Below are positions 1 through 6,116 of a DNA stretch of 6,116 bases, one piece after another. The DNA comes from a virus (lineage: Duplodnaviria > Heunggongvirae > Uroviricota > Caudoviricetes). Made by a program: the position numbers and the translations under genes. The DNA lies in IMG/VR virus record IMGVR_UViG_2695420367_000002. One strand, written 5' to 3'. Within the stretch, counting starts at the first letter, position 1. Each line of letters begins with the position of its first letter. Under the pieces are notes generated by a model. That model was not told where the DNA came from. It was given only the letters and a program-made list of their open reading frames with translations, and did no database searches.

Positions 1-49
1 CCGGTTTTCCTGTGCCGTCTTTCAGTACACCTGAAATCTTTACTGCCAT
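1..49 (-). CDS. stf: Side tail fiber protein, N-terminal 16 codons only (gene continues beyond window start)
   Basis: Minus-strand ATG at 49..47 (plus 'cat'), hand-translated as MAVKISGVLKDGTGKP and open to position 2. This matches the N-terminus of lambda Stf as I recall it. A purine-rich GGGGTGA lies just upstream on the minus strand. Position immediately downstream of lom matches lambda synteny. Too short for independent statistical support. Confidence 0.6.
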   Translation of the reverse strand, partial: MAVKISGVLKDGTGKP

Positions 50-58
50 ATTCACCCC

Positions 59-87
59 ACAAAAAAGCCCGCCTGAACCGGCGGGCT
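59..87 (-). terminator. Intrinsic (rho-independent) terminator-like hairpin downstream of lom
   Basis: Plus strand 66..87 is A-GCCCGCC-TGAACC-GGCGGGC-T: a 7-8 bp GC-rich stem with a 6-nt loop. The plus-strand A6 run at 61..66 places a U6 tract directly 3' of the hairpin on the minus-strand transcript, the correct orientation for the minus-strand lom gene (stop at 114..116). Confidence 0.6.
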
Positions 88-113: not shown

Positions 114-713
114 TCAGAACTTATAACCGACACCCACGATGAAACCGTCAGTGCGCCAGTCGCCACTGCCGGAGCCTTCATAAGCAATATCAATGGCCAC
201 GGATTCGGTCGGGTTAAACTGCACGCCAGCTCCCCACGCCAGAGACGTGTTGCTGTGGCGACCGTCATCACTTCCGGTCAGCACGTCGTGCGTTTTCCCC
301 TTGTTGTCAGTTACGCGGAGATAATCCCCGGAGAAAGTCGACACACGGCTGTAAGCCACACCCGCCATCGCATACGCGCTGAACCATTCATTCACGCGCA
401 CAGACGGCCCCGCCATTACGCTGAACCAGCGGTTACGCACGGAATCTTCATGCCAGCGGGTATCGCTGTAATGGGTCAGCTGGCGATTCTTGTCTCCTGC
501 ATAGCTGAAAGACGTCACCATCCCCAGTGTGTCCGTAAACTCATAACGGTATTTCACGTTAATCCCGTTCAGATCATCACTGCCGGGAACGTTCGTCCGG
601 GCATGAAGATACCCCGCGCTCAGCGTGGACTGATGTTCAGACGCCCATGCAGGCGCACCGGATACGGCCAGACAAATGGCTGCGGACAAAATGGCGGCAT
701 AAAGTTTACGCAT
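114..713 (-). CDS. lom: Lom outer membrane protein (Ail/Lom/PagC/OmpX-family 8-stranded beta-barrel), lysogenic-conversion gene
   Basis: 199-aa ORF with ATG at 713..711 and GAGAGG Shine-Dalgarno about 7 nt upstream. N-terminal signal peptide MRKLYAAILSAAICLAVSGAPAWA with an AWA-S cleavage site. C-terminal ...AIDIAYEGSGSGDWRTDGFIVGVGYKF, including the terminal Phe typical of beta-barrel OMPs, matches the lambda Lom C-terminus as I recall it. Sits directly downstream of J as in lambda. Confidence 0.9.
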   Translation of the reverse strand: MRKLYAAILSAAICLAVSGAPAWASEHQSTLSAGYLHARTNVPGSDDLNGINVKYRYEFTDTLGMVTSFSYAGDKNRQLTHYSDTRWHEDSVRNRWFSVMAGPSVRVNEWFSAYAMAGVAYSRVSTFSGDYLRVTDNKGKTHDVLTGSDDGRHSNTSLAWGAGVQFNPTESVAIDIAYEGSGSGDWRTDGFIVGVGYKF

Positions 714-734
714 AATTACCTCTCGCTTTTCTGC

Positions 735-761
735 AATAAAAAAGGCGTCATTTCTGACGCC
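735..761 (-). terminator. Intrinsic terminator-like hairpin between J and lom
   Basis: Plus 744..750 GGCGTCA pairs perfectly with 755..761 TGACGCC (7 bp) around a 4-nt loop; on the minus strand the loop reads GAAA (GNRA-type). The plus-strand A-run at 738..743 gives UUUUUUAUU immediately 3' of the hairpin on the minus-strand transcript. Located 19 nt after the J stop (780..782). Confidence 0.6.
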
Positions 762-779
762 CGTTCTGGGTTATAAAAT

Positions 780-3700
780 TCAGCTGATACTGATACCTGC
801 TGTGGATTTTTTCATCACCACAACCAGCAGATCGCTGATACTGGTTGTTGGTGTCCAGTTATTCGCTCCTGATGAAGATACGGTGAATGTCAGTGTCAGC
901 GTCCCCTGTCCGGCAGGCATATCTATAACTGAGGAAAATACGCCCTGAGCATCCGTCGTGGACTGATTAAAAATCTCCTGACCATTGCGGGTCACTCTTA
1001 ACCGGCAGGTTGAATACCAGTATGACTGTTGGTTATTACTGTTGAAATTCTCATGCTTACCACCGCGGAATAACACTGGCGGTATCATGACCTGCCGGTC
1101 AAATTTCTGATCATCACTGATTCTTACCGTGATGGTGCCACTGGCATAACTGTTCGTGCGGGGGAAAGACTTGCTGACCGTTTTGACAATATCGCCTTCA
1201 ATCTGATTGGCTGACAGTTTCCCCTTAATCTGACAGTTCTCATTAATCGTGACATTGTTGAGCGTCCCTGAATTTGCATTCACATTACCGCTGATATCCG
1301 CATTTTTAGCGGTCAGCTTTCCGTCTGGTGTCAGGGAAAATGCCGGCGGATTTCCACCGCTGGTAATGGTGGGAGCCGTCAGGCGTTTCAGGAACACGTC
1401 ATTCATGAATATCTGATCACCCTGACCAACAAACATCGGCTTTGTGTTGCCATTTGCAGGATTAATCATCGCAATCCTGTCCGCCGCCAGCAGCACCTGA
1501 CTCTGCATGCCGTCGGGGGTGTTCTCAATACCGGCACCGATACCCGCAATATAAAGGCGTCCGTCCTGCATCTGCTGCAGCTTCACAGCCCACATGCTGT
1601 TCAGGTTATTATTTGTATCAACCTGAACTTTCTGTATCTGCTGGATCGCTGCACTCTGGTCTTCCAGTTTCTTATTGACGGTCTGTGTGATTTCATTGCT
1701 GACATCCGTAATGGACGTCCTGATTTCAGCCAGGTCAGGCGCAAGCTGACCGTTATCAATCTGCGTCCACAGCTCCTGAGCCAGATGGGTTTTCCCTATC
1801 TCGCCTTTGAAAAAATCCAGATAGCCGGATGCATCATCACTCGGCTGACCAACAGCCTCCACGAATGCCGATTTGCCAACGGTGTTCACACTGCGGATAT
1901 AAAAGTAATAATCATGGCCCGGTTTGATATTGATACTGGCGGCTATCCAGTACAGCGCCGTGCCAAGGTAGCGGGCTGTGGTTTCAACCTGCCTGATATC
2001 GGTAATCCGCGTTTCCGAGAACCAGAACTCAAACTGTACCGTCGGGTCATAAACCGCAAGATGCGGCGTGGCGGTTATCTGAAAATAGCCCGGTGTCAGC
2101 TCAATCCGAGACGGCGCTGCCGGTGCGGCAATCCGGAACGATACCGACGCCGGATCGCCCTGCTGCCCCCACGCATTTACCGCCCGGACTGTCAGACTGT
2201 AATTTCCCAGAGCCAGCTGCCTGAAGCGGTATGTGGTTTCCGTCGTCCGGGCCGTGCTGACCAGCCGCTCACTGCCGTCATCCGCTGCCACGGTCAGGCG
2301 AAGCATAAAGCTCACGCCCTTCACCACCTTCGGCGTATCCCAGCGCGCCAGCACCTGGTATTCCCCGCTGTCTGCGGTGACTTCTGCGGTCAGGTGTTGC
2401 ACTGCTGGCGGAGTGACACCATTCACCGTGCCGCTCTGGTCGCCGTCAAAGTGCGCCCCGTTATCCACGATGGCCTCTTTCTCCGGTACATGCTGCACGG
2501 CAGTGATGGCATACGTGCCGTCGTCGTTCTCACGGATACTCACGCAGCGGAACAGGCGCTGGCGCAACGTCGGCAACTTCAGCCCCCACACGCTGTATTC
2601 AGCAACGCCGTCGGGAACACGGCTCACTTTCACCTTCACGCCGTCGGTGACGGACTGGACCTCCACGCTGACCGGATTACCCTCACCGTCAACCAGGCTT
2701 ATCAGCGTGGTGCCGGAGGATGGCAGCGTGATTTCACGGTCGAGCGTCAGCGTCCGGGTCTGGCTGTTCACCGCCAGCACGCGCCCGCCGGTGCTGATAC
2801 CGGCATAGTCATCATCACAGATTTCAATGACATCGCCCGGCACATGGCGAAGCCCTTCTGCGCCCACGCTGAAGTCCACGGTCTGCGTTTCCAGCAGTTC
2901 CGTTTTAATCAGCCACAGCCCGGCGCGGTGTGCCTGCCCCCGGCTGGTACAGCCAAAGGCATCCATCTTCGTGACATTGCGACCGTAACGGGCAATGGCC
3001 TGCGTATCCTCCACAAGCTCTGTCGCCGTCTCCCAGCCGTTGTTCGGGTCAATCCAGTTCACCTCAACGGCATTATGGCGGTCTTTCAGGGCGCTGAAGC
3101 TGTAGCGGAACGGCGCGCCATCATCCGGCATCACCACATTACTGCGGTTATAGGTCCACACCTTATCCGACGGTCGGTCCTGCACGAACGTCAGCGTCTG
3201 CCCGTTCCATACCGGCATACAGCGCATCGCCGAGCAGAAATCACTGAGCACATCCCACGCCTTGCGCTGCGTGGTCAGGTACGCATTACAGGTAATACGC
3301 GGCTCCGTGCCGCCAAAGCCATCCGGCACCGACTGGTCGCAATTCTGGCCGATGACATACAGCGCCCATTTATCCACATCCGCCGCACCAAGACGTTTCC
3401 CCATGCCGTAGCGCGGATGGGTCAGCATATCCCACAGACACCAGGCCATGTTGTTGCTGTATGCCGGTTTAAACGTTCCGTCCCAGATACCGCTGTATTG
3501 CCGCGTCTGCGGGTTATAGTTCGACGGCACCTGCAGAATACGCCCGCGCAGATGATAATTACGGCTCACCTGCTGGCTGCCGAACTGCTCCGAATCCACC
3601 TGCACGCCGACCAGTGCCGTGTTCGGGTAGCACTGTTTCACATCGATGATTTCGGTGTATGACGACCAGAGCGTTTTGTTCTGCAGCTGGTCTGTGGTGC

Positions 3701-4262
3701 TGTCCGGCGTCATTCTGCGCATCCGGATATTAAACGGGCGCGGCGGCAGGTTATCCACCACCACCGAGGCCAGATACTGCGAGGTGGTTTTGCCCTTAAT
3801 GGTGATGTCTTTTTCCGTCACCCAGCCACCATTACGCTGTATCTGAACCAGCAGGCGAACTTCCGACGGATTCCGGTCCCCCTTTGAGGTGGTTTCCACC
3901 AGTGCCTGCACACCGAAGGTCAGGCGCAGACGGTCGATGTTTGCCGACGTGATGGTGCGGGTGATCGGCGTGTCATATTTCACCTCCGTACCCAGCACCG
4001 TCTCGGAGCCGGAGGATTCAAATCCCTCCGGCGGTGACTGCTCCTGCTCACCTGCCCGGAACACCACCGTGACACCGGAGATATTGGTATTCCCCTCACT
4101 GTCCAGCACTGGCGTACTGTTCAGCAGCACACTTTTTAATCCGTCCACCGGACCTTCAACCGGCCCTTCACTGATGGCGTCTATCACGCTCAGTATCTGG
4201 GATGATTTCAGGTTGTCCTTCGCTTCGCGCGGGGTATGCCCCTTACTGCTGCCTTTACCCAT
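780..4262 (-). CDS. J: Tail tip / host specificity protein J (central tail fiber, receptor-binding), 1160 aa
   Basis: Single uninterrupted 1160-codon ORF with ATG at 4262..4260 and GAGGA immediately upstream. N-terminus [20 protein letters not shown] and long stretches of the first ~790 residues match lambda gpJ as I recall it. Position between I and lom is canonical. The distal ~370 residues are more divergent and lower in GC. Confidence 0.95.
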
Positions 4263-4322: not shown

Positions 4323-4964
4323 TCAGCGACCAATCACCACAACCTGACCACCATCCCCTTCGTCTGCCGTGCTGATCTCCTGAGAAACCACACGTGACCC
4401 CACGCGCATTTCCCCGTACAGAACAGGCAGAACATTACCCTGGGCAACCATGTTATCCAGTGATGAGAAATAGGTGTTCTGCTTACCGTTATCCGTGCTG
4501 GTCGTTGTTGCGGTACTCGCTTTCGGTGCCAGCATCTGTGCAACACCGCCAAGCGTCATCGCCGCACCCATTGAAAAGAGAATGTCACTGAAAGCGATAC
4601 TGATCCCCGGCATCCAGATTGCCGTAGCAATCAACGCCGCACCCAGCACCGCCTGAAACACACCGCCACTTTTTGCTCCCGCAAGACGCGGTACGATGTG
4701 GATCACGGCACCATTTGCCAGCGGTTCATTAAGACGGGCAGATAATTCATTTTCGCCTGCATCACGCCCGGCAATCCGTACCTGATACCAGCCCTCATTC
4801 AGTTTCTGGCGAAACGACGGAAACTGTGTGGCCAGTGCGCGGATGGCTTCAGCCCCCGTTTTCACACGAAGGTCGATGCGGCGGCAAAATCGTTGTAAAT
4901 CCCCGTAAAGGCAGATGCGTGCCATTCCCGGTGACGCCAGAGGGAGTGTGTGCGTCGCTGCCAT
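4323..4964 (-). CDS. I: Tail tip assembly protein I (N-terminal ubiquitin-like domain ending in GG, then a hydrophobic segment)
   Basis: 213-aa ORF with ATG at 4964..4962 and GAGG about 7 nt upstream on the minus strand. N-terminus MAATHTLPLASPGMARICLYGDLQRF and C-terminus ...NGKQNTYFSSLDNMVAQGNVLPVLYGEMRVGSRVVSQEISTADEGDGGQVVVIGR match lambda gpI as I recall it; the central region is divergent. Overlaps the 3' end of K by 103 nt, as in lambda. Confidence 0.9.
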   Translation of the reverse strand: MAATHTLPLASPGMARICLYGDLQRFCRRIDLRVKTGAEAIRALATQFPSFRQKLNEGWYQVRIAGRDAGENELSARLNEPLANGAVIHIVPRLAGAKSGGVFQAVLGAALIATAIWMPGISIAFSDILFSMGAAMTLGGVAQMLAPKASTATTTSTDNGKQNTYFSSLDNMVAQGNVLPVLYGEMRVGSRVVSQEISTADEGDGGQVVVIGR

Positions 4965-5605
4965 TTGTCGGTATACCTCTCTCGTTTACTCAGTTGTTCA
5001 GGAATATGGTGCAGCAGCTCACCGTCGCCGCAGTAAATGGCGGCATGATTCGGCACCGATGAACCAAAACAGCACAGCAGCACATCGCCCGGTTGTGCTG
5101 ATGACAACGCCACCTGATACAGCCCTGTGGCCTCCAGATTATCCAGATAGAGATTCTGACCTGATTTCCACCAGTCATCATGTCGGTAAAAATCCGGCAA
5201 ATCGATACCTGCAAGATGATAGGCATCGCGGAACAGCGTATAACAGTCCGTCACCCCGTGCTCAAAGCGCCGCCCGGTGAGATGCGGCACACAGCGGAAC
5301 TTGTGAATCGCCCCCCGGCAGACCAGCCACCACGGCAAATCACTCTGCACCTGCAGCCGCCGGTCAGCCTCACTCAGCCAGGGCAGACCACAGGGATGAC
5401 TGTGGACCAGTGCCACAATCTCACCCTGCATCTCTGCCTGCAGCCAGTCCTCCGGAGCCATCCGGAAATACTCCTCCGGCTCACCGGAAATATTCACGCA
5501 GGGAAAATATCTTTCCCCCTCCGGCGTGCTTACCACGAAGCCGCACGACTCCGCTGGCGCACATCGCCGGGCGTGCGCCAGAATCGCTGATTCTGTCTCT
5601 GTCAT
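4862..5605 (-). CDS. K: Tail tip assembly protein K (N-terminal JAB/MPN JAMM metalloprotease domain plus C-terminal NlpC/P60 cysteine peptidase domain)
   Basis: ORF open from 5647, but the first ATG is at 5605..5603 (MTETESAILAHARR...), 4 nt after the L stop codon. JAMM motif H-x-H-x7-S-x2-D is intact in VALVHSHPCGLPWLSEAD. NlpC/P60-type catalytic Cys (VTDCYTLF) and downstream His residues (PNHAAIY, LLHHIP) are present. The codon at 5647 in the ORF track is TTG, not ATG (checked by hand). Total 247 aa from the ATG. Confidence 0.85.
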   Translation of the reverse strand: MTETESAILAHARRCAPAESCGFVVSTPEGERYFPCVNISGEPEEYFRMAPEDWLQAEMQGEIVALVHSHPCGLPWLSEADRRLQVQSDLPWWLVCRGAIHKFRCVPHLTGRRFEHGVTDCYTLFRDAYHLAGIDLPDFYRHDDWWKSGQNLYLDNLEATGLYQVALSSAQPGDVLLCCFGSSVPNHAAIYCGDGELLHHIPEQLSKRERYTDKWQRRTHSLWRHREWHASAFTGIYNDFAAASTFV

Positions 5606-5609
5606 GGGA

Positions 5610-6116
5610 TTACTGCGAAAGTTTGTTAATGGAAAGGAAGCCGCCAAAGTTGCCGACGTTATTGCGAAACTTACAGCCGCTCAGGCATTTGCTGCATTTA
5701 TCCTTCGTGATATCGGACGTCGGCTGGTCATATTCATCCGCGACTGCCGGACCGTGATAACCGCACTCATCACCGCGATAGGTCCAGGTGCAGGTGTTGG
5801 CCAGCATGATACGTCCCGGAAAAACAGCGCCATCCGTTTCCGTCGGCGTGGACAGTACAAAGGAGGCACTCACCGCGCTCAGTTCGCTGCACTGCTCGAT
5901 GCGCCAGCGGCTGATCACCTCCTGCTCCGGATCGGCGTCACTGTTTCCGTTGACGAAGTTCACCGCATCCAGAAAACGGGCGTAAACCTTACGCCGGACC
6001 ACCGTTCCGCCGACCAGACTCTGCAGATCTTCCGCCATCCCGGTGACCATACCGTACAGGTTAGAAACCGTCAGCGTGGGGCGCGTACTGGTGCCTTTGC
6101 CATTCAGTTCAAAACC
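5610..6116 (-). CDS. L: Tail tip protein L, C-terminal ~168 codons (5' end of the gene lies beyond the window)
   Basis: Hand translation of the minus strand from the window edge gives GFELNGKGTSTRPTLTVSNLYGMVTGMAEDLQSLVGG..., in frame with the 146-aa track ORF and with no stop to the edge. The track's start at 6050 is therefore an internal Met. The Cys-containing C-terminus (TCTWTYRGDECGYHG...KDKCSKCLSGCKF) matches lambda gpL as I recall it. Stop TAA at 5612..5610. Confidence 0.9.
   Translation of the reverse strand, partial: GFELNGKGTSTRPTLTVSNLYGMVTGMAEDLQSLVGGTVVRRKVYARFLDAVNFVNGNSDADPEQEVISRWRIEQCSELSAVSASFVLSTPTETDGAVFPGRIMLANTCTWTYRGDECGYHGPAVADEYDQPTSDITKDKCSKCLSGCKFRNNVGNFGGFLSINKLSQ

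Follow-up and report, generated by a model that had tools for sequence, protein, structure and literature searches.

The window, by which we mean the whole stretch of 6,116 nucleotides that was analysed, carries all of its genes on the minus strand, according to the list of open reading frames with their translations. The gene order, L-K-I-J-lom-stf, is lambda-like, both in these open reading frames and in the genes called on contigs that encode an identical J (Table 1). The window is the entire 6116-bp contig CXZC01000038.1 (GCA_001284725.1), reverse-complemented. One end lies inside gene L and the other follows the first 16 codons of stf, the gene for the side tail fibre (MAVKISGVLKDGTGKP, 49..1, minus strand). 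These ends probably reflect an assembly break at repeats that are common to co-resident lambdoid prophages; genomes that match the window do so at a median of 2 places and a maximum of 15. On related contigs, the called K product has 247 aa and contains Prok-JAB and NlpC/P60 domains. As in lambda, as much as ~100 nt of K overlaps the start of I, and the mechanical list of open reading frames runs K to a TTG at 5647. The two hairpins that directly follow J and lom correspond to terminators that are annotated in phages 21 and 434.

Table 1. Features of the window and zones of the J protein (positions refer to the window; aa, residues of J).
Feature	Position	Strand	Basis or remark
stf, first 16 codons only	49..1	minus	start MAVKISGVLKDGTGKP = lambda stf start
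Strong terminator-like hairpin directly past lom	66..87	minus	terminator-like hairpin
lom	114..713	minus	ORF list
Terminator-like hairpin directly past J stop codon	743..762	minus	phage 21 terminator annotated at same place
Gene J, tip attachment/central tail fibre protein, 1160 aa + stop	780..4262	minus	ORF, Pfam
Module 2, A8-type receptor-binding domain, aa 1001-1160	783..1262	minus	Pfam Ig_GpJ_C 1036-1160, E 5e-36
Conserved linker (lower beta-prism), aa 950-1000	1263..1415	minus	93-97% aa identity to lambda, sliding windows
Module 1, phage-21-type alpha-helical shaft + upper prism, aa 806-949	1416..1847	minus	alignments
28 extra shaft residues relative to lambda/434, aa 836-856 + 860-866	1665..1757	minus	alignments
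Second Ig/FNIII domain, aa 711-805	1848..2132	minus	Pfam Ig_J_second 716-818
J body, aa 1-710, hub domains to first Ig/FNIII	2133..4262	minus	95.0% DNA, 97.5% aa identity to lambda
Gene I	4323..4964	minus	ORF list
Gene K	4862..5605	minus	ORF list
Gene L, truncated	5610 to contig end	minus	ORF list
J vs lambda protein, aa 1-~805			93-100% identical, lambda-like body
J vs lambda protein, aa 805-925			36% identical, 28 extra residues
J vs lambda protein, aa ~926-1000			about 89-97% identical, conserved again
J vs lambda protein, aa 1001-1160			43.6% identical, receptor-binding domain

J is a gene of a lambdoid prophage and belongs to the lambda gpJ family, both by its domain architecture and by its position in the gene block. 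Six Pfam families (in order, FNIII-A_GpJ, Phage-tail_3, Ig_J, Ig_J_second, Phage_Tail_Tip, and Ig_GpJ_C) all score above their curated cut-offs, lambda J has the identical set of six, and the domain positions match those of lambda J up to aa 818. Because the body is 95-97% identical to lambda J, and given the lambda structures, the protein is expected to trimerise in the tail tip and to trigger DNA ejection upon receptor binding.

We name the distal zones of J after the lambda structure paper, which distinguishes an alpha-helical shaft and upper prism, a lower beta-prism, and an Ig-like receptor-binding domain (PMC11101478). The original prediction was that a divergent distal module had been placed on a lambda-like body. 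Indeed, the protein departs from lambda gpJ directly past ...SAFVEAVG (aa 805, window 1848), and its C-terminal domain is far from identical to that of lambda. However, the departure is not continuous, as aa ~926-1000 again track lambda, and what was taken for one exchanged module is two, a shaft and a receptor-binding domain, with the conserved linker between them. Pfam Phage_Tail_Tip ends at aa 1000, where the linker ends.

The first of these modules is the long alpha-helical shaft of the phage 21 type: aa 805-925 have just 36% amino acid identity to lambda but 97.5% to phage 21 and 100% to Chlobot, PhiR70_1, and 640R1. A third type of shaft, from Stx phages, is as long as the 21-type, so it is lambda and 434 that carry the short form. 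A single-sequence AlphaFold model of aa 788-960 (mean pLDDT 53.7, with values of 81-89 for aa ~848-887 only) gives weak evidence of a loop (aa ~837-840) that leads into a long helix (aa 841-899). The J coding sequence also contains, at 1815..1830 on the minus strand, a weak terminator-like hairpin and a T-run after it (ATCCGGCTATCTGGAT TTTTTC, coding ...SGYLDFF...), where the divergent shaft cassette starts. Its presence is probably due to chance, because the window contains 8 such sites and 4.7 are expected. Nothing further was found by hairpin, Rfam, and repeat scans of both strands of 780..1900; an Rfam scan of the whole window returned no family, and a repeat scan of 700..2000 gave short, weak pairs only.

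The second module, the receptor-binding domain, has amino acid identities of 43.6% to lambda and 81.9% to phage 21 (75.4% DNA), as against 100% to the domain type known as A8, so that it is of the A8 rather than the 21 type. The same domain (99.4-99.8% DNA identity) is found on four different J backgrounds. With a lambda-like body and a 21-type shaft, it occurs in the window and in Chlobot (PP925838) and PhiR70_1 (PV340577), whose J proteins share the 1160-aa architecture, the shaft type, and every residue of the domain. (Their overall J DNA identity to the window is 96.7% and 96.0%, respectively, with scattered substitutions in bodies that are 95-96% identical to the window in DNA. A literature search for Chlobot turned up no paper that names this phage.) With a lambda-like body and a lambda-type shaft, the domain occurs in 2H10 (LR595862; 99.6% DNA identity), whose J has 1132 aa rather than the window's 1160. 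Finally, it occurs with the body and third shaft type of Stx phages (74% and 67% DNA identity to the window, or about 73-78% and 57-61% in amino acids) in Stx1_131719, where 160/160 domain residues match the window, and in vB_EcoS_phi330 (hereafter phi330; PV189401), where 158/160 match and the differences are N1037S and S1038T. The 21-type shaft, in turn, occurs with four types of domain (A8, 21, 640R1, and 1717). Thus, the two modules assort independently of each other among phages.

The exchange also left a common breakpoint. Dense mismatches between the window and 2H10, Stx1_131719, or PhiR70_1 end at codons 998-1003, with almost none beyond, which places the breakpoint shared by the backgrounds of the A8 domain at codons 999-1004. 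The conserved linker is likely to be the crossover zone because this boundary coincides with the end of Phage_Tail_Tip. A near-identical domain on differing bodies, together with a common breakpoint, bears out the proposal that the distal part of J was exchanged horizontally.

The J gene of phage 1717 has a different pattern. Its body is ~74% DNA-identical to the window; at codons ~720-737 the identity rises from about 62% to 91-98%; from codon ~738 it stays at 91-98% through the shaft; and in the receptor-binding domain the two diverge again. This would be a third recombination boundary, and judging from the alignment it lies inside the second Ig/FNIII domain, near a step in GC3 (GC content at third codon positions) that is discussed below. 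We could not name a donor lineage for the AT-richer cassettes: when one genome of each species was scanned for relatives of the receptor-binding domain, the hits had identities of just 35-79% and came from Escherichia ruysiae, Shigella, Gilliamella, and two metagenome bins.

The original prediction suggested that J may recognise a receptor other than LamB, and this holds up well, but it also described that receptor as unknown, which it is not. When we searched the PDB sequences with J aa 788-1160 as the query, the best match was "A8 gpJ 713" (9wca and 9wcb, E 2.6e-182). This protein aligns as lambda-like through the shaft and is then identical to the window over aa 994-1160 (167/167, chain J), and 9wcb also holds three chains of "Outer membrane porin C" (OmpC). 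A8 is the C-terminal part of gpJ from a natural E. coli phage, fused onto lambda gpJ (Brodel et al., 2024; PMC11338833). It was tested in lamB-deleted cells and in lamB ompC-deleted cells with plasmid-borne variants of OmpC; A8, 1A2, or both gave efficient delivery for 21 of the 23 variants, and lambda-A8 chimeras deliver DNA via OmpC without LamB (PMC11338833). Also, phi330 does not lyse the Keio ompC knockout and complementation rescues lysis (PMC12502783). We infer that the receptor-binding domain of the window's J binds OmpC and not LamB. Use of OmpC by the combination of a 21-type shaft and an A8 domain is expected only from the modular behaviour of these proteins, because the A8 chimera has the short shaft of lambda (28 residues shorter than the window's) upstream of its junction and phi330 has the third type of shaft.

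One alternative is that the domain uses LamB, as phage 21 does, or uses LamB and OmpC interchangeably. The J of phage 21 (OL657228) also has 1160 aa, is 92.8% DNA-identical to the window's overall, and has the related domain described above; its native receptor is LamB, and it gains the use of OmpC by a single change, I1025T (PMC11336670). As this 82% identical domain is one change away from OmpC, specificity is labile in the clade, and the window's J may retain some use of LamB. We considered whether I1025T was already present in the window's J, but the window retains I1025, so that the expected use of OmpC rests on the domain itself. This alternative nevertheless seems very improbable because, placed on lambda, the identical domain functions in cells deleted for lamB and needs plasmid-borne OmpC, because phi330 fails to lyse ompC-deleted cells that retain lamB, and because the deposited structure pairs the domain with OmpC. 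(A 2026 preprint on receptor prediction covers GpJ of the Drexlerviridae and not lambdoid J.)

We now turn to base composition, which is what first set the distal part of J apart. The GC contents counted by hand in the original prediction were right: the 60-nt lines at 841, 1021, 1201, and 1621 have GC of 0.48, 0.42, 0.40, and 0.47, and those at 2101, 2401, and 3001 have 0.68, 0.67, and 0.58. The mean is 0.489 for 841..1680 and 0.623 for 2101..3060. A maximum-likelihood fit of a single change-point to all sites of J placed it at window 1937 (gene nt 2325, codon 776), within the 1850..1950 that had been predicted, with GC falling from 0.596 to 0.486. GC is not uniform across J: the likelihood ratio was 37.5, whereas 200 shuffles of the codons averaged 6.2 and never exceeded 15.3. 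With third positions alone, the change-point lies earlier, at codon 710 (window 2132), and GC3 falls from 0.734 to 0.568. As GC is 0.56 in lom and 0.56-0.57 in I, K, and L, the low-GC stretch is an island within J. By zone, the body (aa 1-710) has a GC of 0.60, a GC3 of 0.73, and a GC of 0.82 at four-fold degenerate sites; the second Ig/FNIII domain (aa 711-805) is still lambda-like, with GC3 down to 0.61; and the receptor-binding domain has a GC of 0.47. Amino acid composition contributes to the step, as GC at first positions is 0.43 in the receptor-binding domain and 0.60 in the body, and distal J is enriched in N, I, Q, and K and depleted in V, R, and E. An antisense open reading frame of 625 aa (1785..3662, plus strand) occupies only the GC-rich part of J and starts near the drop in composition. 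Rather than a gene, it is an artefact of high GC3, and it provides an independent reflection of the composition step.

Another alternative is that the GC step is only a property of the J family, due to its amino acid composition or domain structure, and says nothing of exchange at this locus. We examined this with a codon alignment of ten J genes (the window, lambda, Chlobot, phage 21, PhiR70_1, 2H10, 1717, 640R1, 434, and Stx1_131719). Part of the step does belong to the family. GC3 drops at codon ~710 in 10/10 genes, including lambda (from 0.72 to 0.63, chi-square P = 0.003); codons 711-804 have a GC3 of 0.57-0.64 in every one of the ten, and the window is 93.3% DNA-identical to lambda there; and two- and three-fold sites drop in every J gene examined. 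So, part of the window's drop begins ~95 codons upstream of the break in homology, in sequence that is 93-95% identical to lambda, and the GC3 drop at codons 711-804 and the drop at two-fold sites are not explained by a swap. The shift in amino acids toward N, I, Q, and K also fits with this alternative.

Four-fold sites, however, behave differently. In the window, their GC is 0.82 in the body but only 0.61 over aa 805-1160 (Fisher P = 4e-7), whereas in lambda it is flat (0.78 in the body and 0.77 in the distal part, P = 0.83), and the distal values of the window and lambda differ (P = 0.003). Furthermore, composition at four-fold sites tracks the allele of the cassette and not the gene. Four-fold GC is 0.59-0.64 in the 21-type shafts of six phages and 0.80-0.83 in the lambda-type shafts of three (0.61 in the window's shaft vs. 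0.83 in the lambda-type allele, Fisher P = 0.019), and it is 0.59-0.61 in the A8 receptor-binding domain on every background, while the domains of lambda and 1717 have 0.70 and 0.81. Given the four-fold sites and the allele tracking, a family-wide property is ruled out as the sole explanation for the whole step. That near-identical domain DNA sits on bodies that are just 74% identical is also direct evidence of exchange, and we consider it very improbable that the step is silent about exchange at this locus. Thus J is compositionally mosaic, as both the change-point and the four-fold sites indicate, but the part of the GC3 step at codon ~710 is shared by lambda and is no mark of a swap in this phage.

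Finally, that the distal part recognises some receptor other than those identified so far is the least probable alternative of all: the domain is just 43.6% identical to lambda's, but it is 100% identical to one whose receptor has been published and whose complex has been deposited, and phi330 depends on OmpC.

We propose instead, with a probability of about 0.88, that the window encodes a lambdoid J with ~805 aa of lambda-like sequence and two independently circulating cassettes, that the composition step stems from these cassettes, and that the protein docks on OmpC. The distal third of J would consist of two cassettes, each of which circulates on its own among lambdoid phages of E. coli: a long phage-21-type shaft (aa ~806-949) and an A8-type Ig-like domain (aa ~1001-1160). 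Homologous recombination in the conserved beta-prism linker would swap the receptor-binding domain, and each cassette would bring its own AT-richer composition at synonymous sites, giving rise to the GC step. The product would trimerise into the tail tip and central fibre, and the trimer of receptor-binding domains would dock on the trimeric porin OmpC, and not on LamB, as the published work suggests. In lambda, opening of the receptor-binding domain leads to rotation of the prism, flipping of the shaft, release of the FNIII domains, and opening of the tube (PMC11101478). By analogy, the opening in the window's J would be relayed through the prism and shaft so that the FNIII domains are released, the tail tube opens, and the DNA is ejected. 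Lambda J (NC_001416) shares the body (95-97% amino acid identity to aa 805), the conserved linker, and the Pfam architecture with the window's J, which presumably has a lambda-like ejection trigger. It differs in its short shaft, in its LamB-binding domain, and in having no GC drop at four-fold sites. We expect that a full-length J with the long shaft would fire as lambda does after binding OmpC.

We also considered a more speculative extension, that the long (21- and Stx-type) and short (lambda/434-type) shafts are functionally distinct trigger or spacer cassettes that were drawn from an AT-richer phage pool. We regard this as doubtful. If it were true, the shaft cassettes would tune the length of the fibre or its firing threshold regardless of which porin is bound by the tip. 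Also, the family-wide composition step at codons ~710-737 would mark where an ancient, exchangeable "distal fibre" unit begins on its proximal side; the breakpoint of phage 1717 falls in this zone.

Under the two-cassette reading, the end of J is a case of ordinary lambdoid tail-fibre modularity, which is already known, and its tip is a common and already characterised OmpC-binding allele, so the significance beyond annotation is little. In annotation, the J of this prophage can be marked as an allele that targets OmpC rather than LamB, which aids the prediction of host range. Engineered lambda particles for delivery already use this tip, and the site at which A8 was joined by engineering (between aa 993 and 1001) matches the boundary of natural recombination at codons 999-1004; 2H10 is a natural counterpart of the A8 chimera. 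As the composition of synonymous sites travels with each cassette, it could serve as a simple marker for typing the cassettes of lambdoid J genes.

The receptor-binding domain is widespread. Its 480-nt segment has a match of at least 99% in 1017 complete E. coli genome records, and a further 495 such records match at 95-99%, with up to ten copies per genome; 19 phage records have a domain that is at least 99% identical in protein. In contrast, the best match of the full 6.1-kb window in a complete genome is at most 95.5%, so the mosaic is rarer than its parts. The identical J protein is encoded on at least 10 contigs of NCBI assemblies. Where these contigs include flanking sequence, J lies within a full head-tail block like that of lambda, and downstream of J come lom, the gene for a 1136-aa side tail fibre, and that for its assembly protein.

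Two of J's neighbours also differ from lambda. gpI (window ~4500..4890, minus strand) contains a second mosaic patch: both of its termini are identical to lambda, phage 21, and Chlobot, but its centre (aa ~27-150) is divergent and is without 10 residues of a Gly/Ala-rich hydrophobic stretch (213 vs. 223 aa). Lom is ~45% identical to the Lom of lambda (93/207 aligned columns) and matches that of Chlobot at 195/199 positions, so the gene downstream of J is also another allele than lambda's.
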